NCBI GenBank assembly: GCA_041288095.1
Contig: JBGGMJ010000114.1
Coordinates: forward strand, 1 to 24,285
Direction: 5' to 3'
Length of the DNA: 24,285 nucleotides
Source: Myxococcota bacterium
GTDB lineage: Bacteria > Myxococcota > XYA12-FULL-58-9 > JALHOP01
This document shows, one piece after another, positions 7,319 through 24,285 of this stretch. The translations under genes and the position numbers were made by a program. Each line of letters begins with the position of its first letter. The first letter of the stretch is position 1. The notes under the pieces were generated by a model. It was not told the origin of the DNA and did not search any database. It saw only the letters and a list, made by a program, of their open reading frames with translations.

Positions 7319-7954
7319 ATGCGCTGGCTCGTTCTCGCCGTCATCGCCAGTGGCGCGTGCGCAACGCCGCGCACGCACCGCACCGGGCAGCCACTGGTGC
7401 TCGCCGCCGATCCCGCGCGCGGGCCTTGTGAAGAAGCGGCGTGGGTAGCGCTCGCGCCAACTCACGTCGGTGCCGAGGCTCAGGAGACGGTCGCGGCCAC
7501 GCAGAGCTGGATCATGTACAGCACGCACAACGAGTCTGCGGATGGTCTCGCCGCCTACCAGAAGGGCCTCGAGCTGCGGCTCACCAGCGAGCAGACCGCG
7601 CGCCTCATTGGCAACACGATGTTGCGGCCCGACATCGACGCTGACGTGAGAGCCATTCACAAGAAGAAGTCGACCGCGACCGGCTTCCTCGTCGGCGGGC
7701 TCGTCGCCACCGTCATCGGTGGCGGCATTGCTTTGGCGGATCTCGAGAACCCGACCGTGGGCCTGTCGATCATGGGCGTGGGCCTGGTGGCTGAGCTCGT
7801 CGCTTTGATGATTCGCCCTCATAACGCGGACGTCGCGTGGGCGGAGGTTCGCGACCGCATCTTCCTGGAAGGCGAAACCGACATTCCCGCGCTCGTCACC
7901 GGCGTCGATGCCGCCAACCAACGCACACGGGCATCCTGCGACGAGCAACCCTGA
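7319..7954 (+). CDS. Hypothetical lipoprotein with C-terminal TM hairpin
   Basis: MRWLVLAVIASGAC lipobox-like signal and two Gly-rich hydrophobic helices near the C-terminus. Starts 9 nt after pyk. Confidence 0.65.
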   Translation: MRWLVLAVIASGACATPRTHRTGQPLVLAADPARGPCEEAAWVALAPTHVGAEAQETVAATQSWIMYSTHNESADGLAAYQKGLELRLTSEQTARLIGNTMLRPDIDADVRAIHKKKSTATGFLVGGLVATVIGGGIALADLENPTVGLSIMGVGLVAELVALMIRPHNADVAWAEVRDRIFLEGETDIPALVTGVDAANQRTRASCDEQP

Positions 7955-8035
7955 TCGCCAACGCGGACGCCAGCGCGTCGATTGACGCCCTTCGTCGCCG
8001 GGGCTATCGAGCCGGCGGCCGACCGCGGCTACAGC

Positions 8036-9361: not shown

Positions 9362-12300
9362 TGCCCATCGTGCTCGCTGCGTTGCGCCGGCCGTACACCG
9401 TCGTGGTCGTGGCGCTCGCCATCACTGTCGCGGCAGCCTTCTCGATCGCCCGCGCACCGGTCGACATATTTCCGTCGCTCGGCGTGCCCGTCATTTACAT
9501 CGTCCAGCCGTACGCCGGGATGACGCCGACGCAGATGGAGAGTCAGCTCGTCAATTACTACGAGTATCATTTTCTCTACGTCGCTGGCGTCGAGCACGTC
9601 GAGTCGCAGTCGATCCAAGGGATGGGGCTCATCAAGCTCTACTTCCACCCCGGCACGGACATCGCGCAGGCAATGGCCCAGACGACGGCGATGGCGTTCC
9701 GTTCGATCGCGTTCATGCCGGCCGGCACGCTACCGCCGTTCATGGTGCGCTTCGACGCCGGCTCGATCCCGGTTGGCCAGCTGGTCTTCAGCAGCGGCAC
9801 ACGCGGTGAGGCGGCGGTCCAGGACACCGCGCTCAACACCGTGCGTCCCATGCTAGCTACCCTGCCGGGCGTCTCGGCCCCACCACCCTCCGGCGGCAAA
9901 GTGCGCACCATCGTCGGCTACTTGGATCCCGAGCGTATGCGGGCCCACGGCCTGTCGCCGGATGACGTGGCGCGTGCCATTGCCCGCGCCAACGTGGTGC
10001 TGCCGGCGGGAAATCTCCGCGTCGGCGACACCACGATGATCGCCGAGACCAACGCCCTCGTCGCCCGTCCGCAAGATCTCGAGAACGTCTCGATACGCGA
10101 GCACGCCGGCACGCACGTTTACCTGCGGGACCTCGGCCGCATCGCCGACGATGCGGACATCGTCTACAATGTCGCCCTCGTGAACGGTCGCCGCACCGTC
10201 TACATGCCCGTGACCAAGCGTGCTGACGCGTCGACGCTCGACGTCGTGCGCGCGGTCAAAAACGCGTTGCCGCGCATGCGGGCCGCTATGCCGGACGACG
10301 TCGCTCTGAGCTTCGAGTTCGATCAGTCGCGCTACGTGACCCGGTCCGTGGTTGGCCTCGTCGAGGAGGGCGCACTGGGCGCACTGCTCACTGGCCTCGT
10401 GGTGCTACTTTTCCTGCGCTCCTGGCGGTCGGCGCTCATCGTCATGCTGACGATCCCGTTGTCTGTTTTAGCAGGCATCATCGGCTTGCGTCTCGCCGGC
10501 CAGACGTTGAACGTCATGACGCTCAGCGGCTTGGCCATGGCCATCGGGATCCTGGTGGACGAGGCCACGGTGGCCATCGAGAACATTCACACCCATCTCG
10601 CGACTGACGCTTCTCCGAGCCGGGCGGTGGTCGACGCGATGCGCGAGGTAACCTTGCCGCGCGTGCTGGCGCTCCTGTGTATCCTCTCGGTGTTCCTACC
10701 ATCGTTCTTCATGGTCGGGGTGAGCGCCTCGCTCTTCCCGCCGCTGGCGCTCGCTGTCGGGTTCACGATGATCGCCTCGTATGTCATCTCGACAGCGCTC
10801 GTCCCAGTGCTGTCCGTGTGGTGGCTACGTCGCGAGAAGCATCACGGCAGTGGCCAACCGCTCATCGCCGTGCGGTACGAGCGGCTGGTCACTGACATCT
10901 TGCGGCGGCCGTGGCTTGCGCTCGTGGTCTACGCCGCGCTCCTCGTTCCAGGTGCGCTGCTCGCCACACGCATCGGCACGGAGCTATTTCCACGTGTCGA
11001 CGCTGGCGAGATGCAACTGCGCATTCGCGCGCCCGCAGGCACTGGCCTCGAGCGCACGACGGAGCTGGTACGCGCCATCGAGCGCATCGTCCGCGAGGAA
11101 GCGGGCGAAGGGCATGTCGCTATCACGCTCGCCAACATCGGTAACCCCGCGTGGACGTTTCCGGTCAACGCCGTCTACGTCTTCAACGCCGGTCCACATG
11201 AAGCCACACTCATGGTGGCGCTCCAGGGCTCCGGCCGACCGTCCGTGCGCGACCTCGAGGGTCGCTTGCGCGCACGCTTCCACAGCGAGCTCCCCGAAAT
11301 GCGCGTGTCATTCGAGCCGGGCGATATCGTCTCGCGCGTGATGAGCTTTGGCGCCAGCGCTCCGGTGCATGTGAGCATCACCGGCAAGAGCCTGCAGGCG
11401 ATTCGCAAACACGCCGAGACTATTCGCGACGCTCTGGCCGTTCGCACCGAGCTCAGCGACGTGCAGATCCCCATGGCGCTCGATTATCCCACGATGCACG
11501 TGGAGATCGACCGCGAGCGGGCGGCCCTTCTCGGCCTAGACGCGCAGAGCATCGGCCGGTCCCTGGTCACCGCGACCTCATCCACGATCCTGACGACCCC
11601 GCTCTTTTGGACCGACCCCGCGAGTGGCAATCCCTACCGGGTGGCCCTGCGTGTGCCCGAGCGCGAGATGCGCGGCGCGGATGACGTCGCGACAACGCCC
11701 GTCGGCGACGTCGACGGATCGGTGGTGACGCTGGGCCAGGTGGCGGCCGTGTATCCGACGACGACGCCTGGGGAAGTCGACCGCTATAACAATCAACGAA
11801 CCGTCGTGGTAACGGCCAATGTCGCTGAAGCGGACTTGGGCACCGCGACACGCGTTGTTGCTGATACGCTCGTGGGTCTCCCACCACCCAAGGGGATCGC
11901 GGTGGCGGTCCATGGCCAAGCCGAGCAACTGCAAACCACGATGGCGAGCCTGCGCACCGGTTTGTTGCTCACGGTGATCATCGTGCTGCTCCTCTTGGTC
12001 GCTGCCTTCCAATCGATTCGTGACGCAGCTGCCGTCCTGGTGACGACACCGGCGGTGTTCGTCGGTGTGGCGCTGGCGCTGTTTCTGACCGGTGGCACCT
12101 GGAACGTGCAGTCGTTGATCGGGACGATCATGGCGATCGGCGTCTCGATGGCGAACGCGGTGCTGCTCGTGACCTTCGCGCGGGATCGCCTCGTTGCCGG
12201 CGACCAGCGGCTGAGCGCCGCGGCTTCGGCGGCCGTGGCGCGGCTACGGCCGATCGTCATGACGAGCATCGCCATGGTGGCAGGCATGCTGCCAATCGCG

Positions 12301-12465
12301 CTCGCTATTGGCGAGGGGGGCGAGCAAACCTCACCGCTGGGTCGCGCCGTCATCGGTGGGCTCCTCGCCTCGACCGTGGCAACGTTGTTCGTCTTGCCCG
12401 CTGCGTACGCGCAGTTCGCCCAACGGCGCTACCGTGACCCCTCTCTCTTGGAGACGACCTCGTGA
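9361..12465 (+). CDS. RND efflux transporter permease subunit (AcrB/AcrD/AcrF family)
   Basis: 1034 aa. ALRRPYTV, PVDIFP, TLNVMTLSGLAMAIGILVDEATVAIENI, RLRPIVMTSIAMVAGMLP and PLGRAVIGGLL motifs. Confidence 0.95.
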   Translation: MPIVLAALRRPYTVVVVALAITVAAAFSIARAPVDIFPSLGVPVIYIVQPYAGMTPTQMESQLVNYYEYHFLYVAGVEHVESQSIQGMGLIKLYFHPGTDIAQAMAQTTAMAFRSIAFMPAGTLPPFMVRFDAGSIPVGQLVFSSGTRGEAAVQDTALNTVRPMLATLPGVSAPPPSGGKVRTIVGYLDPERMRAHGLSPDDVARAIARANVVLPAGNLRVGDTTMIAETNALVARPQDLENVSIREHAGTHVYLRDLGRIADDADIVYNVALVNGRRTVYMPVTKRADASTLDVVRAVKNALPRMRAAMPDDVALSFEFDQSRYVTRSVVGLVEEGALGALLTGLVVLLFLRSWRSALIVMLTIPLSVLAGIIGLRLAGQTLNVMTLSGLAMAIGILVDEATVAIENIHTHLATDASPSRAVVDAMREVTLPRVLALLCILSVFLPSFFMVGVSASLFPPLALAVGFTMIASYVISTALVPVLSVWWLRREKHHGSGQPLIAVRYERLVTDILRRPWLALVVYAALLVPGALLATRIGTELFPRVDAGEMQLRIRAPAGTGLERTTELVRAIERIVREEAGEGHVAITLANIGNPAWTFPVNAVYVFNAGPHEATLMVALQGSGRPSVRDLEGRLRARFHSELPEMRVSFEPGDIVSRVMSFGASAPVHVSITGKSLQAIRKHAETIRDALAVRTELSDVQIPMALDYPTMHVEIDRERAALLGLDAQSIGRSLVTATSSTILTTPLFWTDPASGNPYRVALRVPEREMRGADDVATTPVGDVDGSVVTLGQVAAVYPTTTPGEVDRYNNQRTVVVTANVAEADLGTATRVVADTLVGLPPPKGIAVAVHGQAEQLQTTMASLRTGLLLTVIIVLLLLVAAFQSIRDAAAVLVTTPAVFVGVALALFLTGGTWNVQSLIGTIMAIGVSMANAVLLVTFARDRLVAGDQRLSAAASAAVARLRPIVMTSIAMVAGMLPIALAIGEGGEQTSPLGRAVIGGLLASTVATLFVLPAAYAQFAQRRYRDPSLLETTS

Positions 12466-13487
12466 TGCGGCGTGCTGCGCTCTTTGCGCTCCTGATCCAC
12501 GGCTGCCAGGCCCAGAGCGACGCGCCTCCGCCCCCCGAGGCGCGATCGACACCGGTGATCGAGACGTTCTCTCTCGCGGTCGCGAGCGTCGAAATGACGG
12601 TATCGCTGCCCGGCGAGCTCTCGCCTTACGAAGCCGTCGACATCCGCGCGCGGGTATCGGGTTTGATCTCGGCATTGTCCGTCGATCGCGGCTCGAAGGT
12701 GCGCAAGGACGACGTCCTGCTGCGGTTGCGCGCTCCCGAGCTCTCCGCCCAGCGCGCCGAGGCGCAAGCGCGCTCGCGCACCCAGGAAAGCACGCTGAAG
12801 CGCCTGGAAGAGGCGGCCCAAACGCCCGGCGCCGTCGCCACCAACGAGGTCGACATCGCTCGGACGACCCTCGAGGCCGAGCGAGCGCGCACCGCGTCTC
12901 TGGAGGCTCTCGAGAGCTACACGAGCATCCGGGCGCCGTTTGCCGGCATCGTCACCAAGCGCTACGTGCACCCGGGTGCGCTCGTTTCACCGACTGACCG
13001 CGACCCGCTGCTACGTCTCGAAGACGTGTCCCGCCTGCGTCTCACGGTCGCGGTGCCGGAGCATGCGAGCGGCTCCCTGACTCTCGGCGAAAGCGTCCCC
13101 TTCACGGTCGCGGCATACCCGGGCGAACGCTTCATGGGTGTGATCCAACGATCGGCGGGCTCGATCGACACGACTACCCGTACCCTGCCGGTCGAGCTCG
13201 ATGTCGCGAACGCCGACAATCGTCTGGCGCCCGGCAGCTATGCACAGGTGGCTTGGCCCGTTCGTCACGAACGAACGTTCATGGTTCCACGGACGGCGCT
13301 CGTTCAAACCGCGACGCGCCTGTTCGTGATCTGCGTCCGCGAAGGCAAAGCAGCGCGAGTCGAGGTCCGTCGTGGTCTCACACGAGGCGACGATGTCGAG
13401 ATCTTCGGCGAGGTGCGCGAGGGCGACCGTCTCATCAAGCGCGCCTCGGAGGACATCGCTGAAGGGGCGACTGTGAACGCGACCTGA
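12465..13487 (+). CDS. RND efflux periplasmic adaptor (membrane fusion lipoprotein)
   Basis: Lipobox LLIHGC, IRARVSG..VDRGSKV, IRAPFAGIV, IDTTTRTL and LAPGSYA. TGATG overlap with the RND stop. Confidence 0.92.
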   Translation: MRRAALFALLIHGCQAQSDAPPPPEARSTPVIETFSLAVASVEMTVSLPGELSPYEAVDIRARVSGLISALSVDRGSKVRKDDVLLRLRAPELSAQRAEAQARSRTQESTLKRLEEAAQTPGAVATNEVDIARTTLEAERARTASLEALESYTSIRAPFAGIVTKRYVHPGALVSPTDRDPLLRLEDVSRLRLTVAVPEHASGSLTLGESVPFTVAAYPGERFMGVIQRSAGSIDTTTRTLPVELDVANADNRLAPGSYAQVAWPVRHERTFMVPRTALVQTATRLFVICVREGKAARVEVRRGLTRGDDVEIFGEVREGDRLIKRASEDIAEGATVNAT

Positions 13488-13545
13488 CGGGACGGCGTCC
13501 ACGCATTATGAGCCGGACACCTCCATGGGATAGAGTCCCGGCCGA

Positions 13546-16254
13546 ATGGTGACCTTCTTCCTGGTCGTGCTGGGCGGGTTGATGGGGGCGGCGGCCGATG
13601 AAGCCAACGGGGCGTTCATCGGGATGATCATCGGCTATCTGGCCGCGCGGCTGATCGTCGATCATCAGCGACGCAAAAAGCTGGATGAGCGGCTGAAGGC
13701 GCTGGAGCTGCAGGTGGCGCTGCTGCAAGGCGGGTCACGCGTGAGCGCGGCGCAGGCACCCATCGTGACACCGGTGCCGGTGACGCCCGCGGCGATTCGC
13801 GCGGCGAGCGAAGATGATTTGCCGGCGTCGGAGAGGAAGACGGTCGAGCTGGGGGCTCCCGAGCACTTGGTGGCCGAGAGCCGATCACCGACTGCCGAGA
13901 GCCGAGAGCCGGTAGCGCCGTTGTTTCCGGCGGCGCCTTCGGGCCCCGATCCCATCGAGCGTCTGCGCGCGCTCATCTTCGGCGGCAACACGGTCGTCCG
14001 CGTCGGCGTCATCATCCTGCTCTTCGGCGTCGGCTTCCTCGTCAAATACGGCGCCGAGCACGGCATGTTTCCGATCGAGCTGCGCCTCATCGGCGCCGTC
14101 ATCCTCGGCATGGGCTTGCTGATCGTCGGCTTCCGCCTGCGCAACAAGCGCCTCGCCTACGCCGTGAGCCTGCAAGGTGGCGGCATCGGCACCATTTACT
14201 TGGTCACCTTCGCGGCGCTGAAGATTTACGAGCTCATCCCGCACGGCGCGGCGCTCGCGGTCTTCGTGGTGCTCGCGGTCGCGACGGCCTTCCTCGCCAT
14301 CGTGCAGGATGCTCTGGCGCTCGCGGTGCTCGGCGTCCTCGGCGGCTTCCTCGCGCCCATCCTGGCGTCGAACAACAGCGGCAACTTCGTCGCGCTCTTC
14401 ACCTACTACGCCATTCTCAACGCGGCGATCCTCGTCATCTCCTGGTTCAAGGACTGGCGCGTCCTGAACCTCTTGGGCTTCACCTGCACCTTCCTCGTCG
14501 GCACGGCGTGGGGCCTTTCGGCCTACCAGCCCGAGAACTACGCCTGGACCCAGTTCTTCCTGGCGCTGTTCTTCGTGTTCTACGCGACCATCGCGGTCTT
14601 CTACGCGGTGAAGCGGCCGGCGAAGAGCCGCGGCATCATCGACGGGACACTGGTGTTCGGACTGCCCGCTATAGCGTTCGCGCTGCAAGTGGGATTGGTG
14701 AAGGACACGCCCTGGGGACTCGCCGTCTCGGCCGTCGTCGTCGCCGGCTTCTACATCGGCGTGGCGTCGATCGTCTGGAAGAAGTCGCCGGAGCACGGCC
14801 GCTCGCTCGCCGAGGCCTTCACCGCGCTCGGTGTCGTGTTCGTCACCATGGCGATCCCCTTCGCGCTCAACGCGAGCTGGACCGCCGCTGCCTACGCGCT
14901 CGAGGGTGCCGGCCTCGTCTGGGTGGGTCGTCGCCAGAAGAAGCCGCTCGCCGAAGCCGCGGGCGTCCTCTTGCAGTTCGCCGCCGGCGTCACCTTCGAT
15001 TCGCCTGGCTCGGCCGAGCTCAGCCAACCGGTCATCGATGCGATCTATCCGTATGCGTTCCTACGCGCCGTTGGTGCCCTCGCGTCGGCCTACTTCCTGC
15101 GCACGCGCGTCTCGGCGATCTCGTCGGTAGCGCAGGGACTCTTGGTCGTGTGGGCCATCGCTTGGCTCACCGGCGGCACCATCTACGACATCTTCGATCA
15201 CGACGAGAACAAGCACTTCGCCGTCATCACCCTGGGCGCGATCACGGTCCACGCCCTCCTCCTCGACCTGATCGGCAAGCGCCTCGCGTGGACGGCCGGT
15301 CGCCTCGGGGCCCTGTTGCTCGGGGCCCAGCTCGCGGTCGGCGTCGTCATCTGGGCCATCCTCGAGCTCGGCTTCGAAGAGCAGCAAGATTGGTCGTGGG
15401 CCGGCTGGCTGTTCGCTTTAGCGGTCTGGATGTTGCTGCTGAAACGTCAGGATAAAGAGACCTACCCGAAGACCTTGGCGGTCGCATACGGCGTGACGCC
15501 GCTCCTCGTCTCGACGGCACTCGCGGGCATTGCCTATCTGCACATCGACCGACACGTCCCCGAGGGTGTCTGGTCCGCCGTCGCGGCCGCGCTCATCCCC
15601 GCGTTCGTGTTGTTCGCGTTCCTGGCCGCCGACTTGCGCGATCGCTGGCCCATGGTCACGCACCGCGCCGCCGTCATCAACGGCTTCGTGCCCGTCGTCG
15701 TATACCTGCTCTTCTGGAGTCTCGGCGGCAGCTTCGGCAGCGACGGTGATCCATCGCCGCTCCCTTACGTGCCACTGCTCACGCCGCTCGATCTCACGCA
15801 GGCGTTCATCATTCTGGCGGGCGTCGCCTGGGCCCTGCGCGTCCGTGTCCGCTATCCCGAACGCTTCGAGGCGTTGCGCGTGCCGTTCATCGCGGTGCTC
15901 TGTTTCGTGCTCTTCGCGCACCTCTCCGCGGTCTGCGTGCGCAGCTGCCACTACTACGCCGGCGTGCCCTGGGATTGGGACGACCTCATGGACTCGACGG
16001 TGGTGCAGACCTCGTTGTCGATCGCCTGGACGGTCATCGCCCTCGTGGTGACGGCGCTCGCTTCGCGCAAGAAGTGGCGGGTCGTGTGGATGGTCGGTGG
16101 TGCCTTGCTCGGCGTCGTCGTGCTCAAGCTCTTCATCGTCGACCTGTCACACATCCAGACGGTAGCTCGCATCATCTCGTTCCTGGTCGTTGGTCTCTTG
16201 CTCTTGCTCATCGGCTGGATCTCGCCGGTGCCGCCACGCTTGGCGCGCGCCTGA
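13546..16254 (+). CDS. DUF2339 domain multi-pass membrane protein
   Basis: GGNTVVRVGVIILLFGVGFLVKY, PIELRL, LQGGGIG, LGGFLAPIL, DGTLVFGLP and the C-terminal KLFIVDLS..RIISFLVVG..IGWISPVPP. Confidence 0.9.
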   Translation: MVTFFLVVLGGLMGAAADEANGAFIGMIIGYLAARLIVDHQRRKKLDERLKALELQVALLQGGSRVSAAQAPIVTPVPVTPAAIRAASEDDLPASERKTVELGAPEHLVAESRSPTAESREPVAPLFPAAPSGPDPIERLRALIFGGNTVVRVGVIILLFGVGFLVKYGAEHGMFPIELRLIGAVILGMGLLIVGFRLRNKRLAYAVSLQGGGIGTIYLVTFAALKIYELIPHGAALAVFVVLAVATAFLAIVQDALALAVLGVLGGFLAPILASNNSGNFVALFTYYAILNAAILVISWFKDWRVLNLLGFTCTFLVGTAWGLSAYQPENYAWTQFFLALFFVFYATIAVFYAVKRPAKSRGIIDGTLVFGLPAIAFALQVGLVKDTPWGLAVSAVVVAGFYIGVASIVWKKSPEHGRSLAEAFTALGVVFVTMAIPFALNASWTAAAYALEGAGLVWVGRRQKKPLAEAAGVLLQFAAGVTFDSPGSAELSQPVIDAIYPYAFLRAVGALASAYFLRTRVSAISSVAQGLLVVWAIAWLTGGTIYDIFDHDENKHFAVITLGAITVHALLLDLIGKRLAWTAGRLGALLLGAQLAVGVVIWAILELGFEEQQDWSWAGWLFALAVWMLLLKRQDKETYPKTLAVAYGVTPLLVSTALAGIAYLHIDRHVPEGVWSAVAAALIPAFVLFAFLAADLRDRWPMVTHRAAVINGFVPVVVYLLFWSLGGSFGSDGDPSPLPYVPLLTPLDLTQAFIILAGVAWALRVRVRYPERFEALRVPFIAVLCFVLFAHLSAVCVRSCHYYAGVPWDWDDLMDSTVVQTSLSIAWTVIALVVTALASRKKWRVVWMVGGALLGVVVLKLFIVDLSHIQTVARIISFLVVGLLLLLIGWISPVPPRLARA
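13873..13914 (+). repeat. Degenerate tandem heptamer array, 6 x 7 bp (consensus GCCGAGA), inside the DUF2339 linker
   Basis: GCCGAGA GCCGATC ACCGACT GCCGAGA GCCGAGA GCCGGTA. The 42 bp length keeps the frame (AESRSPTAESREPV). Confidence 0.75.
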
Positions 16255-16269
16255 CGTAACGGAGCTCAC

Positions 16270-17628
16270 GTGCACTATCTCGCGCTCGTTGCCGCCATAG
16301 CGGCCACACCCCAAAACGACATTCAGGTCAAACGCGACGACTTCGCGTACGGCGCGACCCTCGAGGTCGACCCCGAGCACGCGCTCCAGCGCCTGGTCGT
16401 ACCGGTCACGATCTACGAGCAGCTCACGCGCGACGACGCCGCCGATCTGGCGGTGTTCAACGCATCGGGCAGCCAGGTGCCGCACGCGCTGCGCCGCGCC
16501 AGCGAGTCGGTCCGCGAGAACCCCGACGTGAGTCTGCCTGTGTTCCCGCTCAAGGCGACCTCGCAGGCCAACGCGGGCAGCGTCGAGATCACCGTCGAGC
16601 GCGGTGCCAGCGGCGCCGTCACCAAGGTGAGCACCAAGGACTCAGGGGGCGACGCGACGAGCGTGCTCACCGCGTATCTCGTCGACGCCTCGAGCGTCAC
16701 GCAACCCATTCGCAGCCTCACCTTCCGCTGGAAGGGAGACTCCGCGAGCTTCGTGCAGCATCTGTCGATCGCGGCGGGCGACGATCTGCAGAGCTGGTCC
16801 ACCGTCGCCGCGGACGTCACCGTCGCGAGCCTCACCCACGACGGACACCGCATCGAAAAGGAGCGCATCGAGATCGCCCCGGTGCGCGCCAAATATCTAC
16901 GCGTCACCTGGCCGGGGAATGCGCCGCCGCGCGAGCTCGACGTCGTGGTCGCGGGTCTCGCGAGCAGCGTCACCGAACCAGTGCGCGACTGGGCGGAAGG
17001 TGGCGAGGTCACGACCCCACGGCCGGGTGTCTACCGTTTCCACCTCTCCGGCTTCCGGCCGGTCGACCGCGTCCGCATCAACCTGCCGGAGGACAACACG
17101 CTCGCCGAGGCGACGCTCTCGAGCGCCGACAACGTCGAGGGTCCGTGGAGTACTCGTTATAACGGACTCATCTACCGACTCGACAAAAACGGCGTCGGCC
17201 CGGTGACCATCAACGTCGGCGACGTCGCCGATCCATTCTGGCAGCTCGAGGTCAGCACCCAGGGTGGCGGCATCGGCAACGGCGCGCCAAAGTTCGACGT
17301 GGGCTGGCTGCCGCACGAGCTGCTCTTCGTGCGCCGCGGTGAGCCACCGTTCACCATCGCCTACGGCAACGCCAACCACGGGGTCCAGAGCTTCGATCCG
17401 ACGGCGCTCGCCAGCATGGCGCGCATGGAGGGTGGCGAGTCGCTGGGCGCGGCGCGCATCACCGAGGCGAAAGTGACGCTCGGCGGTCCTTCGAAGCTCA
17501 CACCCGAGCCGCCGGACACGACGCTCCCGATCCGGCGCATCGTCCTGTGGGCCTCGCTCGCCGCGGCGGTACTTCTGCTCGGCTGGATGAGCCTCAGACT
17601 GTTCAAACAGATGGGCTCTGCCGCCTGA
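16270..17628 (+). CDS. DUF3999 family protein (usual partner of DUF2339)
   Basis: GTG start with GGAG at 16261. Signal peptide, DLAVFNASGSQVPHAL, DDLQSW, LLFVRRGEPPFTIAYG and C-terminal TM VLWASLAAAVLLLGWMSLRL. Confidence 0.85.
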   Translation: MHYLALVAAIAATPQNDIQVKRDDFAYGATLEVDPEHALQRLVVPVTIYEQLTRDDAADLAVFNASGSQVPHALRRASESVRENPDVSLPVFPLKATSQANAGSVEITVERGASGAVTKVSTKDSGGDATSVLTAYLVDASSVTQPIRSLTFRWKGDSASFVQHLSIAAGDDLQSWSTVAADVTVASLTHDGHRIEKERIEIAPVRAKYLRVTWPGNAPPRELDVVVAGLASSVTEPVRDWAEGGEVTTPRPGVYRFHLSGFRPVDRVRINLPEDNTLAEATLSSADNVEGPWSTRYNGLIYRLDKNGVGPVTINVGDVADPFWQLEVSTQGGGIGNGAPKFDVGWLPHELLFVRRGEPPFTIAYGNANHGVQSFDPTALASMARMEGGESLGAARITEAKVTLGGPSKLTPEPPDTTLPIRRIVLWASLAAAVLLLGWMSLRLFKQMGSAA

Positions 17629-17648: not shown

Positions 17649-19031
17649 ATGTTTCTAGTTAGGCGCGCTGGCGCGACCCCCCTTTTGGTCGCGGCGGTGT
17701 TCGTATCGACCGCGCTCGCCTGGGTCGTGCCGGTGCTCTGGCCCACGGGCACGACGGCGACGCCGCTCTACGCCATCCGGTCCGCTGCGGCGTGCAACAC
17801 CTGCCACATCGAGCCCGCCGGTTGGTACAACCCGCCCGACGACGCCGGCCGCAAGTGCACCCTCGACTGCACCGGCTGTCACATCAGCAAGACCGGCGGC
17901 GGTCTGCGCACCGCGACCGGCGACTTCTACGGCTACGAGAGCCTCGCGATGTTCGGCTCGCACCCCGGCGACGGCGTCGACCCGAGCAAATATCGGGACC
18001 CCGACGACAGCTACAGCACCAAGGGTCGTTATCGTTTCTGGGAAGGCTTCTCCGGCTGGCAGGCCGGCAAGACGCCGATGGTCAAAGTGAAGGATCGCTT
18101 CGGTCCCATCGAGCCCGACCCCAAGCTCAAGTGGGGCGCCGACGTGCGCATCTTCGGCTACCTGCCGCTCGGCAGCGAAGAGTCGCCGAAGGTCTTCCCG
18201 ATGCAGGCCGAAGTTTACGGCTTCGCCAAACCGGCGAAGAACATCTCAATCTACGGCACCGTCGGCCTGCAGGGCGATCGCCGCGACCTCATCCAGAAAG
18301 GCGAGTGGCACGATCGCTTCGCCATTCGCGAGCTCTGGATTCAAGCCGACAATTTCAAGAACAACGGGTACGTCCGCGCCGGCAGATTCACCAAGCCCTT
18401 CGGATGGCGTCACCCCAACCACACCCTCTTCACGCGCGCGGGCCTCGACTACGATCAATACGCGCAAGTCTTCGGCGCCGAGATCGGAGTGGCGCCGAAT
18501 TACCCGTACGCCAATCTCGCGGTCTTCTATCAAGGCATCGAGAAGTGGCCGGGTGAGCAACAAGACACCGGCTACGGCGCGGCGCTCACGGCGGGCGTTC
18601 GCGATCTAGGCTGGCAGCTCGGCGGCAGCGCCGAGATCTTGAAAATCACCGAAGCCGGCACGACGAACATCGGCGCGGGCACGCAGGTCACGGCCGGTCC
18701 ATTGTGGGCCCTGAATCTCTATCCGTTCACGATCCTCGGTGAAGCCGATTTCCGCGCCTACAACCCCGTCGAGCGCGCCGACACGGCGTACCAACTCTTC
18801 ATCTTCCACGAGCTCGACTACATGCCGACGCGCGGCATCAACATTTTCGGCACCTACGAGTGGCAAGACGTGAACCTCGTGAACCGCGAGGATCACCGCC
18901 AGCGCTTCTCGGTCGGCGCCGACTGGAACATCTACAAAGGCTGGCAGGTCACCGCGCAGTACCGCCGCCTCTACCAAGCGACGACGTTCCTCTCGAACGA
19001 TCTGCTCCTGATGCTGCACTTCTGGATCTGA
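17649..19031 (+). CDS. Putative cytochrome c-porin fusion (Cyc2-like) with two CxxCH motifs
   Basis: N-terminal hydrophobic signal, ATPLYAIRSAAACNTCH (CNTCH at 17793-17807) and CTGCH (17868-17882) followed by TGGGLR. The rest is amphipathic beta-strands (YVRAGRFTKPFG) ending LLLMLHFWI. Confidence 0.7.
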   Translation: MFLVRRAGATPLLVAAVFVSTALAWVVPVLWPTGTTATPLYAIRSAAACNTCHIEPAGWYNPPDDAGRKCTLDCTGCHISKTGGGLRTATGDFYGYESLAMFGSHPGDGVDPSKYRDPDDSYSTKGRYRFWEGFSGWQAGKTPMVKVKDRFGPIEPDPKLKWGADVRIFGYLPLGSEESPKVFPMQAEVYGFAKPAKNISIYGTVGLQGDRRDLIQKGEWHDRFAIRELWIQADNFKNNGYVRAGRFTKPFGWRHPNHTLFTRAGLDYDQYAQVFGAEIGVAPNYPYANLAVFYQGIEKWPGEQQDTGYGAALTAGVRDLGWQLGGSAEILKITEAGTTNIGAGTQVTAGPLWALNLYPFTILGEADFRAYNPVERADTAYQLFIFHELDYMPTRGINIFGTYEWQDVNLVNREDHRQRFSVGADWNIYKGWQVTAQYRRLYQATTFLSNDLLLMLHFWI

Positions 19032-19055: not shown

Positions 19056-20162
19056 ATGTTCACCCCCACTCTCGTGCTCGTCACGCTCATCGCCGGCCCA
19101 GAGGTCGTCGTCATCGACTCACGCGGCGACGGCTTCCGCTCCGAGACCAGCGTCAACGGCTTCCCCACCGAGCACATGCCGTCGGTGCAATCGATCAGCG
19201 AAAGGACGACCGGCTATCCCTCCTGGGATCACCGTTGCTTCCCGGTACATCCCTACTTCTTGAGGCCGGGCGCCAACACCGCGGTGATGACCTACACCTT
19301 CGACGAGAGCCTGGTGGCCCGCGAAGAGAAGGGCCCTTGGACGCAAAGCGTGGAGGTCGTGACCAGCACTCTCGTTGACGAGGCGCAGCCAGTGTCGCTC
19401 GCCAAACAAAGCGGGCCCGCCCTCACCCGCGCCGCCAACAAGAAGCCACAGAAGCTCACCGTGACCTTCAAGCTGCCTACCGATCCACCGGCCTGGGGTT
19501 GGATGAAGGGTGTCGCTATAGCGGACAACAAGGAGGCCGCCGCGAGCCTCTACGCGGAATATCAGAAGCTCTGGGCGACTCTCGAAGGCTTGCCCAAGCA
19601 GACACCCGCCGACCGCGACGCTTTCCGGGCGGCGACGCGCGCCAGCACCGCCGAGTTCATCCGCGCCAGCGAATCGCGCGGCAAGCGTTACACGTTCGTC
19701 GAGGACCTCACGCACGCCGCCGGAGTCCTCGGCATGCCGGGAGAATTCCCGCCCGTGCCCGAGCCGAAGGGCAAGGCGAAGACGAAGAAGGCGGAAGACC
19801 CGAAGGTGCTTGCGCCCCCGAGCCTCGCGCCCGTCCACGACGCGCCGTCCGACACGGGTCCCAATGATTGGCCGCATCTCAAATGGGTCCCGCTGCCCGC
19901 GGCCGGCTCGACCAAGCTCGTCGTCTTCGCCGGCGGGCGGCTCGCAAAGCTCGTCAACACGGGCGGCGGCCATACCTTCACGTTCGCGAGCAATTGGACC
20001 GACGGTCCCTGGAGCTCCCGCGGCACCGACAAGCTCTCGTTCGAGGCCTGGTATCGCAAGAACGCCGCCGGTGCTTGGGAGCTCGACGCGCTCTACCCCA
20101 CGTATTGGGCGAACATCGCCAGCCTCTCGGTTAGCTCCATGGTGGACGGCATGGCATTCTAG
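19056..20162 (+). CDS. Hypothetical exported protein
   Basis: 368 aa ORF with host-like codon use and a short hydrophobic N-terminus MFTPTLVLVTLIAG. Confidence 0.7.
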   Translation: MFTPTLVLVTLIAGPEVVVIDSRGDGFRSETSVNGFPTEHMPSVQSISERTTGYPSWDHRCFPVHPYFLRPGANTAVMTYTFDESLVAREEKGPWTQSVEVVTSTLVDEAQPVSLAKQSGPALTRAANKKPQKLTVTFKLPTDPPAWGWMKGVAIADNKEAAASLYAEYQKLWATLEGLPKQTPADRDAFRAATRASTAEFIRASESRGKRYTFVEDLTHAAGVLGMPGEFPPVPEPKGKAKTKKAEDPKVLAPPSLAPVHDAPSDTGPNDWPHLKWVPLPAAGSTKLVVFAGGRLAKLVNTGGGHTFTFASNWTDGPWSSRGTDKLSFEAWYRKNAAGAWELDALYPTYWANIASLSVSSMVDGMAF

Positions 20163-20172: not shown

Positions 20173-21117
20173 ATGGCCCCCATCGACGCCAAGATAGACC
20201 TCGCAAACCCGCGCCATTTGGCCGCGGCCCGAGGTCTCGCCGCCGCCGTGCGCGATCTCGACAAGCGCGGCGTCGCGGGCGCGGAGGTCAAGCTTCACCT
20301 CCCCCAAGCCGGTGGCGGTAGGGACGTCGTCGTGGTCGGCGATCCACGAGCGCTCGCCGCCCGGGCCGAGACCGCTTTCGCGGAGCAGATCGCGCGCGCC
20401 TTGAACAAGCTCGCCGGCGGCGAACCGCCCGAGGAGCACGGCGTTTCAGCGTGGCGGACGGCGACGCGGGCGGCGTTGAGCACCGGGACCAGGGCGGTCA
20501 CGATCATCAAGCCACCGCTCGTGCAGGCGGGACGCGCCGTCGCCGCGAGAACCCCCGACGTCGTCAAGAGGCGGGGCGCGCAAGCCGGCGCGGCCGTCAT
20601 GTGGGGCCTCAATGAGGGCTTGAGCCTGCTGGGCCAGGTGGTCCGCGGCACCGAGAGGGGCCGCCGCCTCATGCAGCGCATCAGCAACTCGCACCTCGTC
20701 GCCGAGCGCGCCTACGTCGAGGTGCGCGAAACCAACGGTCTTCACTACGTTTACGCGCCGTGGGTCGTCGACCCGATCGCGACGCTCGCCAATGAGAGCT
20801 TCGCGTTCCGCCTCAACATGACCTCGAGCACCATCGGCTTCGTGCCCTTCACCGCGCCGGCTATCCAAGCCTTGGCGGCGGGCTGGCTCTACGCCTGGGG
20901 CTGGACGTACAGCACCTCGCCCGAGGGCGAAGCCTCGAAGAACATGGCCATCGAAGCCGCCATTCAAACGCTCGCGACCGTCGTCCCAGGCCCAGGCTGG
21001 GTGACACTGCCGGCGGCTCTCGTCGCCGGGGGCGCCGACTCCGCGGAGATCAGCGAAGGTATCGAGCGTGGCGATCCGTTCGTCACCTTCAGCTGGTCGC
21101 GCACCGGACGGCCCTGA
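20173..21117 (+). CDS. Hypothetical protein with C-terminal hydrophobic helices
   Basis: ATG at 20173 preceded by GGAG, 10 nt after the previous stop. The upstream extension to 19810 overlaps the previous CDS and is rejected. Confidence 0.65.
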   Translation: MAPIDAKIDLANPRHLAAARGLAAAVRDLDKRGVAGAEVKLHLPQAGGGRDVVVVGDPRALAARAETAFAEQIARALNKLAGGEPPEEHGVSAWRTATRAALSTGTRAVTIIKPPLVQAGRAVAARTPDVVKRRGAQAGAAVMWGLNEGLSLLGQVVRGTERGRRLMQRISNSHLVAERAYVEVRETNGLHYVYAPWVVDPIATLANESFAFRLNMTSSTIGFVPFTAPAIQALAAGWLYAWGWTYSTSPEGEASKNMAIEAAIQTLATVVPGPGWVTLPAALVAGGADSAEISEGIERGDPFVTFSWSRTGRP

Positions 21118-21123
21118 GAGGCG

Positions 21124-21468
21124 CTACTCGCTCGTGTCCGCCGGGGGCGCGCCGATCTCGACCCACTTGAGGAAGGCCGCGCGGTCGATCGGCGACATCG
21201 GTGGGTCGGTGAGCGGCGGCATGATGCCCGCGTCGACGAGGTCGCGCGCATCGATGCGGCGCTCGTAGAGCGTCTCGTAGGTGTCGCCGTCGAACTCGCC
21301 CTGCGGGTTCGAGCTGTTGTGGCAGCGCAGGCAGTAGTTGGCGGTGACCTGCGCAATCTCACGGTAGGTCGGCCGCTCGGGCACCTCTTGGAGCACACTC
21401 GTGTTCTCGCTGCCGAAACCGGGGCAGGCGGTGAGAGCCAGAAGGACGAGAGGAAGAAGCCGGCGCAT
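21124..21468 (-). CDS. Monoheme c-type cytochrome lipoprotein (planctomycete cytochrome C-like domain)
   Basis: MRRLLPLVLLALTAC lipobox, CLRCH heme site, distal MPP and WVEIGAP. Alternative start at 21483. Confidence 0.8.
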   Translation of the reverse strand: MRRLLPLVLLALTACPGFGSENTSVLQEVPERPTYREIAQVTANYCLRCHNSSNPQGEFDGDTYETLYERRIDARDLVDAGIMPPLTDPPMSPIDRAAFLKWVEIGAPPADTSE

Positions 21469-21494
21469 ACGAATGCGTGGCATATAGCACCACC

Positions 21495-22898
21495 CTAGCG
21501 GACGCGCAGCTCCCAAACGATGTTGCTGGTCACGACCGACGCTTCCGCCGGGTTCGGCTTGTAGACGTTCATCACGAAGTGGCGCACCGCGTCCTCGACC
21601 TGCGGCACGAAGGGCACCAGCTCGATGCTCAACACCTTACGGCGCCGATCGACGTGCAGCAGCAAGTGACCCTCTTCGGTCGTGCCGTGGACGAGACTCC
21701 AGTCGCGCTCGCCCGGGTGCACGACGCGATGGGTGAGCGTGAGGTCCGCGGCCTTTTCGACGACGTCGACCAGCAGGTCGAGGAAATACGGCATGGCGAA
21801 GCGCAGCTCGCCGATGTCCTCGAAGGTGCCGATGAAGCTCGGGCGACGCTGGGCGAAGTCTTCGCGATAGAGATTGAGCGGCACGGAGAACGCGTCCGCT
21901 AAAACGGTCGGCTTCGTGCTCTCGGTGAGCGACAGCTCGACCCAGTCGCTCTCGTACCAGTGGAGCTTCGCGGCGTGCGTGTAGTAGCGGTTGTGGCGCG
22001 CGTGCCAGGCGTCGATGCGCAGGCCGAGCTCGCTTGCGACCTTCTTGAAGAGCTTGGTGGTCGGAGGGAAGACCGCCGAGAGCAAGCGGCCACCCGGCTT
22101 GCACAGCGCGATGGCGCGCGACAGGAACAGCTCGAAGCACTCGCGATTCGCCATCGGGTCGGTGAGGACGACGTCGTAGAGCCCGAGCAGCTCGGGCGGC
22201 ATCGGGTCACGCAGGTCGACCTCGCGCGTCTCGATGGAGACACCCTGCTCGCGCGCCGCATCGCCCAAGAAGCGCAGCAGGAAGTCGTCGATGTCGAAGA
22301 CGCTCACCTCGTGGCCGAGCATGGCGAGTGGCATGGCGACCAGATCGTCGTCGCCCAAGCACAAGACCTTCTTCTTGCCGACCACCGTGGCGTCGCCGAC
22401 GGTCAGGGCAAGGCGCACCGCGGTCTCGGGGAGCACTGGGCACTGGCCGATCTGCTCGAAGAAGCGCTTGCGACGGGCATGCGCGCGCAAGGTCGCTTCG
22501 TGCGCCGCTTTGACGCGTGGCGACCAACCGACCGACAGCTCACGGCCGACCACCGCGTCGAGGCCGCCGATGACACCCGCTAACACGGAGTCCGACTTGG
22601 GCGGGCCCTCGGCGAGGAAGCCCGCGGCAACGAGCTTCGGCGCCAGCTGCTCGACGCCCTTCATGTCCCAGCCGAGGGCGAGCTGCTCCAACGCGTTCAC
22701 GTAACGAAAGTCGACGGTCAGCTCGTCGTCACCGTTGAGATCGACGAGGCGCGAGTTGGTGGGGCCGATCGACAGGATGATGCCGTCGGCCAAATGATAG
22801 AGCTGCGTCGCGCCTTCGGGCGGTGTCCGCGCCGGCGGAATACGCGGTAATTTGTCGAGCTGCAGGGACTCGAGGACGGCGAGGCGTGACGTATTCAT
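21495..22898 (-). CDS. BpsA-like (branched-chain polyamine synthase / bis-aminopropyl spermidine synthase family) aminopropyltransferase fused to a C-terminal degenerate AdoMetDC-fold domain
   Basis: Q..VLPETAVR, VLCLGDDDL (GDDD at 22344-22355), VFDIDD, VDLRDPMP, YDVVLTDP and LFLSRAIALCKPGG match the BpsA_C/DUF43 pattern. The C-terminal ~115 aa align without gaps to the neighbouring SpeD. Confidence 0.82.
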   Translation of the reverse strand: MNTSRLAVLESLQLDKLPRIPPARTPPEGATQLYHLADGIILSIGPTNSRLVDLNGDDELTVDFRYVNALEQLALGWDMKGVEQLAPKLVAAGFLAEGPPKSDSVLAGVIGGLDAVVGRELSVGWSPRVKAAHEATLRAHARRKRFFEQIGQCPVLPETAVRLALTVGDATVVGKKKVLCLGDDDLVAMPLAMLGHEVSVFDIDDFLLRFLGDAAREQGVSIETREVDLRDPMPPELLGLYDVVLTDPMANRECFELFLSRAIALCKPGGRLLSAVFPPTTKLFKKVASELGLRIDAWHARHNRYYTHAAKLHWYESDWVELSLTESTKPTVLADAFSVPLNLYREDFAQRRPSFIGTFEDIGELRFAMPYFLDLLVDVVEKAADLTLTHRVVHPGERDWSLVHGTTEEGHLLLHVDRRRKVLSIELVPFVPQVEDAVRHFVMNVYKPNPAEASVVTSNIVWELRVR

Positions 22899-23887
22899 GC
22901 GAACACCGTCCGCTCAGGCGTGCGCTCGGTGCGCCGTGGCCGCACCCGCGTGTCTTCGTCGGCGAAGAGCGTGAACGCCGCGGTCATGGTGGCGTGATCG
23001 AGCGCGTCGTCGTAGGGCACGAAGCTCACCAGCAAGTGGCCGAGCTCGGGATTGAGCTCGGCGACGAAGCCTCGACCCTCGTCGTCGTACCAACAGAGGA
23101 TGTGCTTGTCTTCGTAGGTCTTGAGATCGGAGAGCTCGGGCTTGCGGCCGGAGATCTCCGCGACCTTGGCGCCGAAGGTCTCGAGGGTCGCGCCGCGCGC
23201 GAGATCGAGACCATCCATGTCGAACCAAGCGTAGGGCGGTGCATCGACGCTCACTGGCAAGAGCTGTGACAGCTCACCGCTGCGCGGAGCCGGCAGCTCG
23301 GGCACGCTGGTCGCGATGGCGCCGGACAAGAGCACGAGGTCTCCGGCGCCGTCGGCAACGTGGCCACCCGCGAACAGCGTGTGATCCACTTCTCGTTGAT
23401 AGCCGATCACCTTCACGCCCATGACGCGCACGTGCTCGTAGAAGCCGCGGTCGAACGGCCAGCGCAGGCGAGCGATGACGGTGCCGGAAGGACCGACTGA
23501 CGCTAAAGCGGACTCAAGCCGAGCAGCGGTCAACGCGAGGTCCGATGCTTCGAACACCGAGACGTCGGCGACCACTTCTTTCACGGGCGGCGCATCGGCG
23601 CGCACCACTTTGACGGACACGTTCGCGAGCTGGCCCGCCAAGCCGTCGACGTCACCGAAGAGCACGACGCGCTTGGGATGCAGTCCCTCAATGGCAACCG
23701 CGCGCCGCACCACCGACGACGGCAAGGTGGCCCGTTCGCCCAGCACCAACGGAATTCCTTCGCGAGCCCGCGCTTCACGCACCCGCGCCACGCGCTCGCC
23801 GTGTGCTTGCATGAAGCCGGGGAGCGAGCCGCTGTACATGCTGTCGAGCGCGGCGAGTCGTCTCGCGAGGGTGTCTACGTCGTGCAT
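22895..23887 (-). CDS. Degenerate paralog of the BpsA-AdoMetDC fusion (probable pseudoenzyme)
   Basis: GERATLPSSVVRRA..KRVVLFGDVDGL parallels GQCPVLPETAVRLA..KKVLCLGDDDLV. The C-terminal NPELGHLLVSFVPY parallels WPENGVMFIDI and KVLSIELVPF. ATGA overlap with the downstream gene. Start could be TTG at 23926. Confidence 0.7.
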   Translation of the reverse strand: MHDVDTLARRLAALDSMYSGSLPGFMQAHGERVARVREARAREGIPLVLGERATLPSSVVRRAVAIEGLHPKRVVLFGDVDGLAGQLANVSVKVVRADAPPVKEVVADVSVFEASDLALTAARLESALASVGPSGTVIARLRWPFDRGFYEHVRVMGVKVIGYQREVDHTLFAGGHVADGAGDLVLLSGAIATSVPELPAPRSGELSQLLPVSVDAPPYAWFDMDGLDLARGATLETFGAKVAEISGRKPELSDLKTYEDKHILCWYDDEGRGFVAELNPELGHLLVSFVPYDDALDHATMTAAFTLFADEDTRVRPRRTERTPERTVFA

Positions 23888-23893
23888 CTTGAG

Positions 23894-23922
23894 GTCGTAG
23901 AAAGCAGGAAACGCGCGGGCAA
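23894..23922 (-). promoter_or_regulatory. Candidate internal leaderless promoter TTGCCC-N17-TACGAC, 6 nt before ATG 23887
   Basis: Exact 17-nt spacing and no Shine-Dalgarno before the ATG. The -10 lacks its final T. Confidence 0.3.
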
Positions 23923-23938
23923 ACAATTAGGCGCTGGT

Positions 23939-24285
23939 TCAGCCGACGCGCGTGCGCAGATTCTGATCGCGGCACTCGTACGCCAGGTTGTCGCGCTTGA
24001 TGGCCGCATGCGGGACGTTGCGGCAGATGCTCTCGAAGGCGGCGCGGGCCGCGACCTCGCCGGAGCACGAAGCGATGTCGATGAACATGACGCCGTTCTC
24101 GGGCCAGGTGTGAATGGCGATGTGCGACTCGGAGAGGATGACGGCGCCGGTGAGGCCCTGCGGATCGAAGACGTGCAGGTAGCGGTGCAGCTCGGTGAAG
24201 TTCCCGGCTGACACGGCGTCGGTGAGCACACGGTGCATGTGCGCCGGATCGTTCAAGTGCTCGAACGAACAGCCTTCGAGCGTGG
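23939..24285 (-). CDS. speD: S-adenosylmethionine decarboxylase proenzyme (class 1b), 5'-truncated by window
   Basis: HVFDPQGLTGAVILSESHIAIHTWPENG..DIASC, with an intact E-S self-cleavage site and catalytic Cys. The frame stays open to the window edge (TLEGCSFEHLND). Confidence 0.93.
   Translation of the reverse strand, partial: TLEGCSFEHLNDPAHMHRVLTDAVSAGNFTELHRYLHVFDPQGLTGAVILSESHIAIHTWPENGVMFIDIASCSGEVAARAAFESICRNVPHAAIKRDNLAYECRDQNLRTRVG

Follow-up and report, generated by a model that had tools for sequence, protein, structure and literature searches.

Introduction

The described systems that come closest to the locus reported here are the BpsA enzymes and the aminopropyltransferases joined to a domain derived from S-adenosylmethionine decarboxylase (AdoMetDC). 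The locus is a cluster of three genes, speD, p2 and p3, at the end of a 24,285-nucleotide (nt) stretch of DNA from a Myxococcota bacterium (contig JBGGMJ010000114.1 of assembly GCA_041288095.1); this whole stretch is called the window throughout. According to a 2026 review (PMC12979288), orthologues of bpsA occur only in (hyper)thermophiles. In section 9 of that review the GDDD motif of BpsA is given as indispensable, positioning the aminopropyl group of decarboxylated S-adenosylmethionine (dcSAM), and Asp225, Glu259, Tyr290 and Tyr316 are listed as the acceptor-activating residues of the Thermococcus kodakarensis enzyme (Tk-BpsA). In human spermine synthase, according to PMC12803844, the AdoMetDC-derived domain has lost its decarboxylase function and sequence similarity and is essential for dimer formation, and bacterial AdoMetDC-aminopropyltransferase fusions are the presumed ancestors of the animal enzyme (PMC12803844). 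That a dead AdoMetDC domain can be attached to an aminopropyltransferase is, as a general principle, already in print. Our literature search returned no paper on a BpsA/AdoMetDC fusion, on a BpsA pseudoenzyme paralogue or on BpsA homologues of Myxococcota, its DUF43 query being swamped by names of the DUF43xx type.

Here we report that p3 encodes a BpsA-family protein and that p2 is its degenerate tandem paralogue, conserved directly upstream of it; both proteins end in a domain that appears to descend from class 1b AdoMetDC and to be dead as a decarboxylase. Our preferred reading, to which we give about an even chance, is that the SpeD-p2-p3 operon performs dcSAM-dependent aminopropyl transfer, with the dead AdoMetDC-derived domains as an assembly module.

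Organization of the speD-p2-p3 locus

Three co-directional open reading frames (ORFs) on the minus strand fill the last 2.8 kb of the window:

23939..24283 (visible ORF), minus strand: speD, class 1b pyruvoyl S-adenosylmethionine decarboxylase proenzyme; stop codon at 23939-23941, the gene running on past the window end at 24285
22895..23887, minus strand: p2, degenerate p3 paralogue, predicted pseudo-aminopropyltransferase; 330 amino acids (aa) from the ATG at 23887
21495..22898, minus strand: p3, BpsA-family protein, predicted catalytic aminopropyltransferase subunit; 467 aa
22895-22898, minus strand: ATGA overlap of the p2 stop codon (TGA) and the p3 start codon (ATG), seen in the sequence and read as translational coupling

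The gap between the end of speD and the p2 ATG is 51 nt. An alternative TTG start at 23926 would extend p2 to 343 aa (22895..23926). Among ten close homologues of p2 most begin at the equivalent ATG, and p2 was therefore taken as 330 aa. A promoter and terminator scan of 20900-24285 gave nothing above shuffle expectation that fits an operon. For the comparisons below, 80 loci were fetched via the p3 family and labelled L001-L080; at 93-97% identity to the window, L001-L003 do not count as independent lineages.

Much of this had been proposed in a sequence-only reading of the same stretch, and what it had read directly from the sequence was borne out. The gene coordinates and the ATGA coupling at 22895-22898 proved correct. 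The active SpeD that it had proposed agrees with matches to Pfam and TIGR03330 and with the retention of all family-invariant residues, its BpsA-like gene with the matches of p3 to BpsA_C and, by profile and Foldseek, to solved BpsA. Its degenerate tandem paralogue was recovered as p2, homologous to p3 over both domains and carrying a GDVD motif. A dead AdoMetDC-like C-terminal domain, claimed for both proteins, is upheld for p2 by its fold (a match to 2iii) and for p3 indirectly, and neither has a conserved Ser. The myxobacteria-like host is consistent with close relatives labelled Myxococcota, and an architecture that the reading did not know from the literature was absent also from the papers that we found.

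The BpsA-type core of p3

We found that p3 matches the Pfam family BpsA_C (PF01861) over residues 142-267 with an E value of 7.4e-23 and 81.5 bits, against a cutoff of 27. A database search with p3 gave 75 matches, 59 of which were near-full-length (E <= 3e-61) with identities of 36-97%. The AlphaFold2 (AF2) model of p3, made from 54 sequences, reached a predicted local distance difference test score (pLDDT) of 90.9 and a predicted template modelling score of 0.80. Its best Foldseek matches in the PDB were Tk-BpsA (5xnf, E 9.7e-16), the Thermus thermophilus enzyme Tth-BpsA (6j27) and a Pyrococcus homologue (2qm3). All of the top nine were BpsA or 2qm3; the match at E 9.7e-16 had a template modelling (TM) score of 0.54, normalised to the target, over 246 columns. 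The p3-family profile matched Tk-BpsA at E 3e-23. The core and its central motif lie as follows:

21879..22478, minus strand: p3 catalytic core, residues 141-340, with GDDD, D247-P248 and N303/Y305/Y306, then the Y344-x-E346 linker
22344-22355, minus strand: GDDD motif of p3, residues 182-185, aligned to Tk-BpsA 157-160

Ten residues (G182, D183, D184, D185, D247, P248, Y305, Y306, Y344 and E346) are invariant in 54/54 p3-family sequences. In the hidden Markov model (HMM) alignment of p3 and Tk-BpsA, GDDD falls on 157-160, D247 on Asp225 and Y305 on Tyr290; Asp225 and Tyr290 help to activate the acceptor in Tk-BpsA (PMC12979288, section 9). Tyr316 of Tk-BpsA falls past the end of the p3 alignment, and Y315 is a candidate counterpart. 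Cys153 of p3 (in GQCPVLPET; window 22440-22442, minus strand) is also invariant in 54/54 sequences; Tk-BpsA has Ala at this place (QAYVTPET), and Cys153 is a subfamily-specific residue close to the active-site entrance.

The likeness to the solved BpsAs is partial. The match to BpsA_C covers only profile positions 12-139 of 243, in its first half, and Foldseek puts the identity of p3 to the solved enzymes at 24-28%. Glu259 of Tk-BpsA aligns to a non-acidic residue. The acidic C-terminal carrier tail of Tk-BpsA is missing from p3 and a folded domain takes its place; the chemistry of p3 may therefore differ from that of Tk-BpsA. The conserved Y344-x-E346 linker, which has a low pLDDT (65), is placed where the Tk-BpsA tail would begin, and to judge by the model it might substitute for this tail. 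Such departures favor an alternative in which p3 is not a polyamine synthase and transfers an aminopropyl or methyl group to a protein, a lipid, a secondary metabolite or the basic tail of p2. This alternative also draws on the conserved basic motif in that tail and on the absence of any further polyamine gene in the window, or of one conserved in the related loci. Nevertheless, we consider it decidedly unlikely. The GDDD motif, which positions the dcSAM aminopropyl group in BpsA (PMC12979288), is invariant, the closest structures are all BpsA, and the operon linkage as well as AdoMetDC fusion in several phyla argue for the use of dcSAM. We thus keep to p3 as a predicted dcSAM-dependent aminopropyltransferase.

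p2 as a maintained, predicted pseudoenzyme paralogue

No match was found for p2 in Pfam or NCBIfam. A p2-family profile was built from 19 sequences and searched against 1.84 billion representatives; 113 proteins matched at E <= 1e-3, of which 74 reached E <= 1e-10. The weakest of these matches were p3-family members aligned over most of both proteins. The profile aligned to protein P0056 at E 3.8e-7 (query 21-326, target 75-416) and to P0058 over query 28-341 and target 1-347. By hhalign, the p2 N-terminal domain paired with the p3 core (probability 98.7%, P 2.2e-16) and the p2 C-terminal domain with that of p3 (probability 92%, P 6.6e-7). As the p2 profile recovers the p3 family and hhalign joins both domains, we conclude that p2 and p3 are tandem paralogues with the same two-part architecture. 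Pairwise BLASTP stayed at noise level (p2 vs. p3, E 0.041; SpeD vs. p3, E 0.049; SpeD vs. p2, E 5).

The AF2 model of p2 had a pLDDT of 86.6. Its first domain is given below:

23303..23887, minus strand: p2 N-terminal degenerate BpsA-like Rossmann domain, residues 1-195; GDVD replaces GDDD at residues 78-81

In Foldseek the p2 model matched 2qm3 and the BpsA structures 5xnc/5xnf with E values of 9e-6 to 8e-5, the whole set of 2qm3 and BpsA matches reaching up to 1.5e-4, and with TM scores of about 0.4. The motif of the p2 family reads x-D-x-D-G, and its essential middle position (Asp159 in Tk-BpsA) is Asp in 1/68 members; the D-P motif is not conserved. With the essential middle Asp lost, p2 is predicted to be catalytically dead. 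Near its C-terminus p2 carries a basic motif, T-R-x-R-P-x-R-T (residues 313-320; window 22898-22960, minus strand), in which R314 is present in 66/68 sequences. This motif could reach into the acidic active site of p3; the C-terminus of Tk-BpsA carries instead the acidic carrier tail.

That p2 might be a functionless, decaying duplicate is suggested by its lack of a family match, by the disappearance of its catalytic motifs, and by the loss, in the window clade, of about 70 N-terminal residues and an insert of about 25 residues that distant homologues have kept. We regard this as very improbable. The p2 reading frame stays open and conserved among homologues whose identity falls from 91% to 21%, there are 74 representatives at E <= 1e-10, and the gene holds a constant position upstream of p3. 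Its fold is predicted with confidence and its C-terminal residues are strongly conserved. Judged by sequence conservation, p2 is clearly maintained and under selection rather than decaying.

SpeD resembles an ordinary class 1b AdoMetDC

The visible part of SpeD, 114 aa long, matches Pfam AdoMet_dc with an E value of 1.6e-25 and the NCBIfam equivalog TIGR03330 with 86 bits against a cutoff of 75.65. Because the orthologue in L001 is 122 aa long, only eight N-terminal residues should lie outside the window. All residues that are invariant in a 56-sequence family alignment (F47, G51, S61, H62, H66, W68, P69 and E70) are kept and sit within "LSESHIAIHTWPE". The protein has the E-S-H processing site, the HTWPE motif and the active-site Cys, and with its family profile E values of about 1e-38 are reached for three solved AdoMetDCs of this class (1tlu, 1vr7 and 2iii). 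Its family membership and intact residues give SpeD the look of an ordinary AdoMetDC that processes itself, and we read it as a normal enzyme that would make dcSAM. Enzymes of the class 1b AdoMetDC family work as dimers.

The C-terminal domains of p2 and p3

Both p2 and p3 end in a domain of about 120 residues:

22898..23245, minus strand: p2 C-terminal AdoMetDC-like domain, residues 215-330; no conserved Ser at the processing site
21498..21866, minus strand: p3 C-terminal domain, predicted dead AdoMetDC-like, residues 345-467; Gly410 at the pyruvoyl-Ser position, nt 21669-21671

The two models share the order beta-alpha-beta-beta-beta-beta-alpha. In p3 the predicted elements are strand 354-360, helix 370-383, strands 389-395, 400-406, 411-417 and 422-428 and helix 432-446, followed by two more strands; in p2 they are strand 220-225, helix 235-246, strands 250-257, 262-268, 273-279 and 284-289 and helix 294-308. 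In the Foldseek search with p2, rank 9 was the Aquifex AdoMetDC 2iii (E 1.7e-4, probability 1.00, TM 0.62 normalised to the target), aligned over 117 columns of the 120-residue target, and human spermine synthase (3c6k_A) was also among the matches, at rank 25 with 102 columns. On the grounds of their length and the order of secondary structure, both matches would belong to the C-terminal domain of p2. The predicted model thus places this domain structurally in the AdoMetDC fold. In the search with full-length p3, at least 500 methyltransferase-fold matches filled the list, and the fold of the C-terminal domain was not visible in that search.

For p3, an AdoMetDC-like C-terminal domain is supported indirectly, by the order of secondary structure, by homology to the p2 domain and by a weak in-register match to the SpeD profile. 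In hhalign the p3 domain aligned to the SpeD family over 91 in-register columns with a score of 26.6 (P 3.7e-4, probability 36%). This score exceeded all 40 column-shuffled nulls (mean 10.9, standard deviation 2.0, maximum 15.8), and the reversed profile gave 18.0. A merged profile of both C-terminal domains aligned to SpeD over 101 columns with a probability of 72% (P 3.3e-5). Direct profile searches did not reach the relationship. The SpeD HMM at E <= 1e-3 matched only SpeD ORFs and two fusion ORFs in all 80 loci; with filters off and E <= 10 it matched nothing, p2 and p3 ORFs included, in the 12 loci L006, L008, L010-L013 and L015-L020. The ESM Atlas gave no usable feature match for the C-terminal domains of p3 and its homologue P0042.

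The alignment to SpeD shows what has changed at the active site. The E-S-H of SpeD is aligned to E-G-H in p3, where position 410 is Gly in 51/54 sequences, Cys in two and Ser in one; D-R-x replaces W-P-E, and Phe replaces the active-site Cys. In p2 the processing turn reads G-x-G, with Ser in at most 4/68 members. Since neither family has a conserved pyruvoyl-forming Ser, both domains are read as dead decarboxylases. They might still act as ligand sensors that bind S-adenosylmethionine (SAM), dcSAM or methylthioadenosine (MTA) and tune the transferase allosterically to the donor supply. The retained fold would suit this, as would the conservation of the p3 domain (P429 invariant, D417 and R418 nearly so, pLDDT above 90) and, in the hhalign alignment, several conserved charged residues at the strand-turn-strand of the SpeD active site. 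Yet the ligand and catalytic residues of SpeD (Ser, W-P-E and Cys) are all lost, and the closest precedent, human spermine synthase, uses its domain for dimerization. Sensing appears to us distinctly improbable, and a role in assembly remains our preferred reading of the two domains.

Conservation of the cluster and natural fusions

A profile of the p3 C-terminal domain matched 17 of the 80 loci (L001-L015, L017 and L018). In 15/17 of these (L001-L015) the gene immediately upstream of p3 is a p2 homologue; of the two exceptions, L017 is cut by a contig end and L018 is without p2 within 2.9 kb. The conserved core unit is the p2-p3 pair. The SpeD profile also matched 17 of the 80 loci in total, and speD is near p2-p3 in 8/12 assessable loci. 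Its placement at the p2-p3 loci is as follows:

L001, L002, L003, L005, L009 and L014 (six loci): speD opens the cluster, immediately ahead of p2
L004 (one locus): speD about 1.4 kb upstream, past a kinase gene on the opposite strand
L007 (one locus): speD downstream, on the other strand
L006, L012, L013 and L015 (four loci): speD not found in the available flanks at E <= 10 with filters off
L008, L010 and L011 (three loci): placement not assessable because of contig ends

The trio as a unit, which the sequence-only reading had expected to be conserved, is therefore confirmed in one part only: the p2-p3 pair holds in 15/17 loci, and SpeD accompanies it in 8/12. Outside the trio we saw no wider conserved neighborhood, and the genes differ between loci. 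The flanks hold tetratricopeptide repeat (TPR) proteins, kinases, APH-family proteins, an amine oxidase in L006 and an asparagine synthase in L005. The flavin amine oxidase of L006 lies upstream of p2 (3-1382, plus strand), at a locus where no speD was found, and APH-family phosphotransferases lie upstream of speD in L009 (3437-4318, plus strand) and directly upstream of p2 in L013 (3632-4771, plus strand). Such neighbors possibly supply accessory functions in some lineages.

Fusion proteins link the genes in another way. Single-chain p2-p3 fusions were found in P0093 (840 aa), P0054 (781 aa) and the more distant P0171 (810 aa). Among the 186 collected proteins none had SpeD fused to p2 or p3. 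In two metagenome-assembled genomes (MAGs), a BpsA_C domain is followed by a complete AdoMet_dc domain: a 562-aa protein in L044 (Clostridia MAG; 2501-4186, plus strand) with BpsA_C at 8e-46 and AdoMet_dc at 8e-38 (profile positions 1-107 of 107), and a 556-aa protein in L069 (Dysgonamonadaceae MAG; 5506-7173, plus strand) with BpsA_C at 8e-41 and AdoMet_dc at 1e-35. Their domain order is that of p3, and with QESH...HTWPE and the Cys retained in both, the AdoMetDC domain looks active. Stand-alone SpeD adjoins PF01861 genes in other phyla, including L021, L022, L024, L050, L055 and L072.

The PF01861 relatives come from MAGs labelled Myxococcota, Bdellovibrionales, Deltaproteobacteria and Planctomycetota and from many Paenibacillus and Brevibacillus genomes, these being labels that do not imply orthology. 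L023-L080 (Paenibacillus, Brevibacillus, Aneurinibacillus, Cohnella and others) include many cultured Bacillota with core-only PF01861 homologues, which are 29-37% identical to p3 residues of about 149-337; speD adjoins them in L033, L050, L055 and L072. These Bacillota homologues sit uneasily with the confinement of bpsA to thermophiles as worded in PMC12979288.

The association of speD with the pair also bears on a different arrangement, built on the three-protein complex of the sequence-only reading, in which SpeD joins p2 and p3, a dead domain replacing one SpeD protomer or docking the SpeD dimer so as to regulate decarboxylation and channel dcSAM to p3. The dead domains would be homologous to SpeD, of a family that works as dimers; speD is the first operon gene in 6/12 assessable loci and near the pair in two more, and the covalent BpsA_C-AdoMet_dc fusions show that proximity of both activities has been selected. 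In trypanosomes a dead paralogue activates AdoMetDC, as reported in PMC5201418. We nevertheless hold this arrangement to be rather unlikely: it gained no direct support from our results, no SpeD was found in the available flanks of 4/12 assessable loci under the permissive search given above, none of the 186 proteins joins SpeD to p2 or p3, and SpeD resembles an ordinary, self-sufficient member of the TIGR03330 equivalog. Moreover, as two dead domains are present, their pairing with each other is more economical. A complex prediction does not help here: that of p3, p2 and SpeD (SpeD as partner) scored 0.00 against a mark of 0.32, had no folded controls and counts neither way. A stronger form, which we think unlikely, would make SpeD, p2 and p3 a metabolon. 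A dead domain would replace a SpeD protomer in the manner of a prozyme, decarboxylation would require SpeD to be bound to the transferase, and its dcSAM would pass straight to a BpsA-type active site and end up in a branched or long-chain polyamine, in bacteria that are not known to be thermophiles. If this is true, evolution would have repeated independently, with another family of transferases, the path that led to animal spermine synthase.

Proposed mechanism

In the mechanism that we prefer, SpeD would process itself and make dcSAM, and p3 would be the catalytic BpsA-type aminopropyltransferase. Its acceptor would most likely be a polyamine, yielding a branched or longer polyamine. p2 most likely forms an obligate heteromer with p3, as argued by the ATGA coupling, the constant adjacency of the two genes and the natural p2-p3 fusions. 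Both C-terminal domains would go back to a class 1b AdoMetDC that had become joined to the transferase; the grounds for this ancestry are the active-looking fusions with the same domain order in other phyla, together with the fold and the hhalign results. By analogy with human spermine synthase, the dead domains would then probably associate in the way that protomers do in the AdoMetDC dimer and so serve as an assembly module. The function of these domains and the p2/p3 heteromer are matters that we infer.

Several observations weigh against this mechanism. None of the 15 p3 C-terminal domains examined (0/15) matched Pfam AdoMet_dc (PF02675) at E <= 10. The AdoMetDC fold that the sequence-only reading had given to both proteins stands for p2, through the Foldseek match to 2iii, and is indirectly supported for p3. 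A p3 C-terminal domain profile searched against PDB sequences had 15 matches at E <= 10, all at chance level and none an AdoMetDC. The hhalign probability between the p3 domain and SpeD ranged from 13 to 41% with the alignment used, a smaller alignment giving 13%. For the p2 domain alone the comparison with SpeD was not significant (P 0.019-0.27), and 4/40 shuffles reached its score; a negative control, the p2 N-terminal domain against a 10-sequence SpeD profile, reached P 0.0022. As for the p2-p3 fusions, they were predicted from metagenomes, and a frameshift in the ATGA overlap could have created them as an artefact. Glu259 of Tk-BpsA aligns to a non-acidic residue of p3 and a folded domain stands in for the acidic carrier tail, and the acceptor and product of p3, and even its use of dcSAM, are likewise things that we infer. 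Finally, pairing of the two dead domains with each other, which we deem probable, is drawn from analogy.

Other features of the window

No other polyamine gene was found in the window. Directly after p3 lies a 130-aa ORF (21127-21516, minus strand) with a lipoprotein-like signal, one CxxCH haem motif and no Pfam match. Its TTG start overlaps the end of p3 by 22 nt; if it began at the ATG at 21483, the two would be 11 nt apart. A counterpart of equal length and position occurs in L001, and a different gene stands beside p3 in L002; this ORF is probably not part of the module. Further away, two large ORFs without a Pfam match occupy 17649-19028 and 19056-20159 (both plus strand); in the first (460 aa), a signal-like N-terminus and two CxxCH motifs precede a long region of beta-barrel-like composition. 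The region 2310-17625 encodes two T2SSE/PilB-type ATPases, Fur, a PAP2 phosphatase, pyruvate kinase, an RND efflux set (OEP, AcrB, HlyD) and a DUF2339/DUF3999 pair, none of them polyamine-related.

Comparison with known systems

BpsA (N4-bis(aminopropyl)spermidine synthase, EC 2.5.1.128; 5XNF/5XNC, 6J27; PF01861) has its catalytic fold and family in common with p3, which keeps GDDD and the equivalents of Asp225 and Tyr290 and shows a genetic link to dcSAM supply. The systems differ in that Tk-BpsA ends in a short, flexible acidic tail, whereas p3 carries a folded domain of about 120 residues, predicted to be a dead AdoMetDC-like one, and is accompanied by the degenerate paralogue p2. In addition, the relatives of p3 are found in MAGs labelled Myxococcota, Bdellovibrionales and Deltaproteobacteria, labels that do not imply a growth temperature. 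In (hyper)thermophiles branched polyamines lend stability to macromolecules. A conserved and clearly selected BpsA-family system in genomes labelled Myxococcota suggests other uses for the BpsA reaction or for a related chemistry.

Human and animal spermine synthase (3C6K) is similar in being an aminopropyltransferase fused to a dead domain derived from class 1b AdoMetDC. Its transferase is SpeE-type and that of our locus BpsA-type; its dead domain is N-terminal, whereas those of p2 and p3 are C-terminal; and it is a homodimer from one gene, in contrast to the pair of a putatively active and a dead paralogue seen here. The bacterial AdoMetDC-SpdSyn/SpmSyn fusions described in PMC12803844 likewise unite a decarboxylase and an aminopropyltransferase in one polypeptide, and the BpsA_C-AdoMet_dc proteins of L044 and L069 are their counterpart in the BpsA family. 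In those fusions, however, the AdoMetDC is N-terminal and active and the transferase SpeE-type; here the domains appear dead and speD is separate.

A dead paralogue beside an active enzyme of polyamine metabolism is also known from the trypanosomatid AdoMetDC/prozyme pair and from other prozyme pairs (DHS, PRMT1), as described in PMC5201418 and PMC3663545. The trypanosomatid AdoMetDCs are eukaryotic class 2 enzymes whose activation by heterodimerization is proven in these sources, whereas the dead/active pair of our locus would be the transferases p2 and p3, any effect on SpeD being putative. Taken with these systems, the loci present what may be one evolutionary route in three steps: speD as a separate gene, an active-looking fusion (L044 and L069), and a dead-domain fusion with a pseudoenzyme paralogue. 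In an unrelated transferase family, animal spermine synthase presumably took the same route, and the role of dead AdoMetDC domains, be it assembly, sensing or activation, is testable here in a simple three-gene bacterial system.

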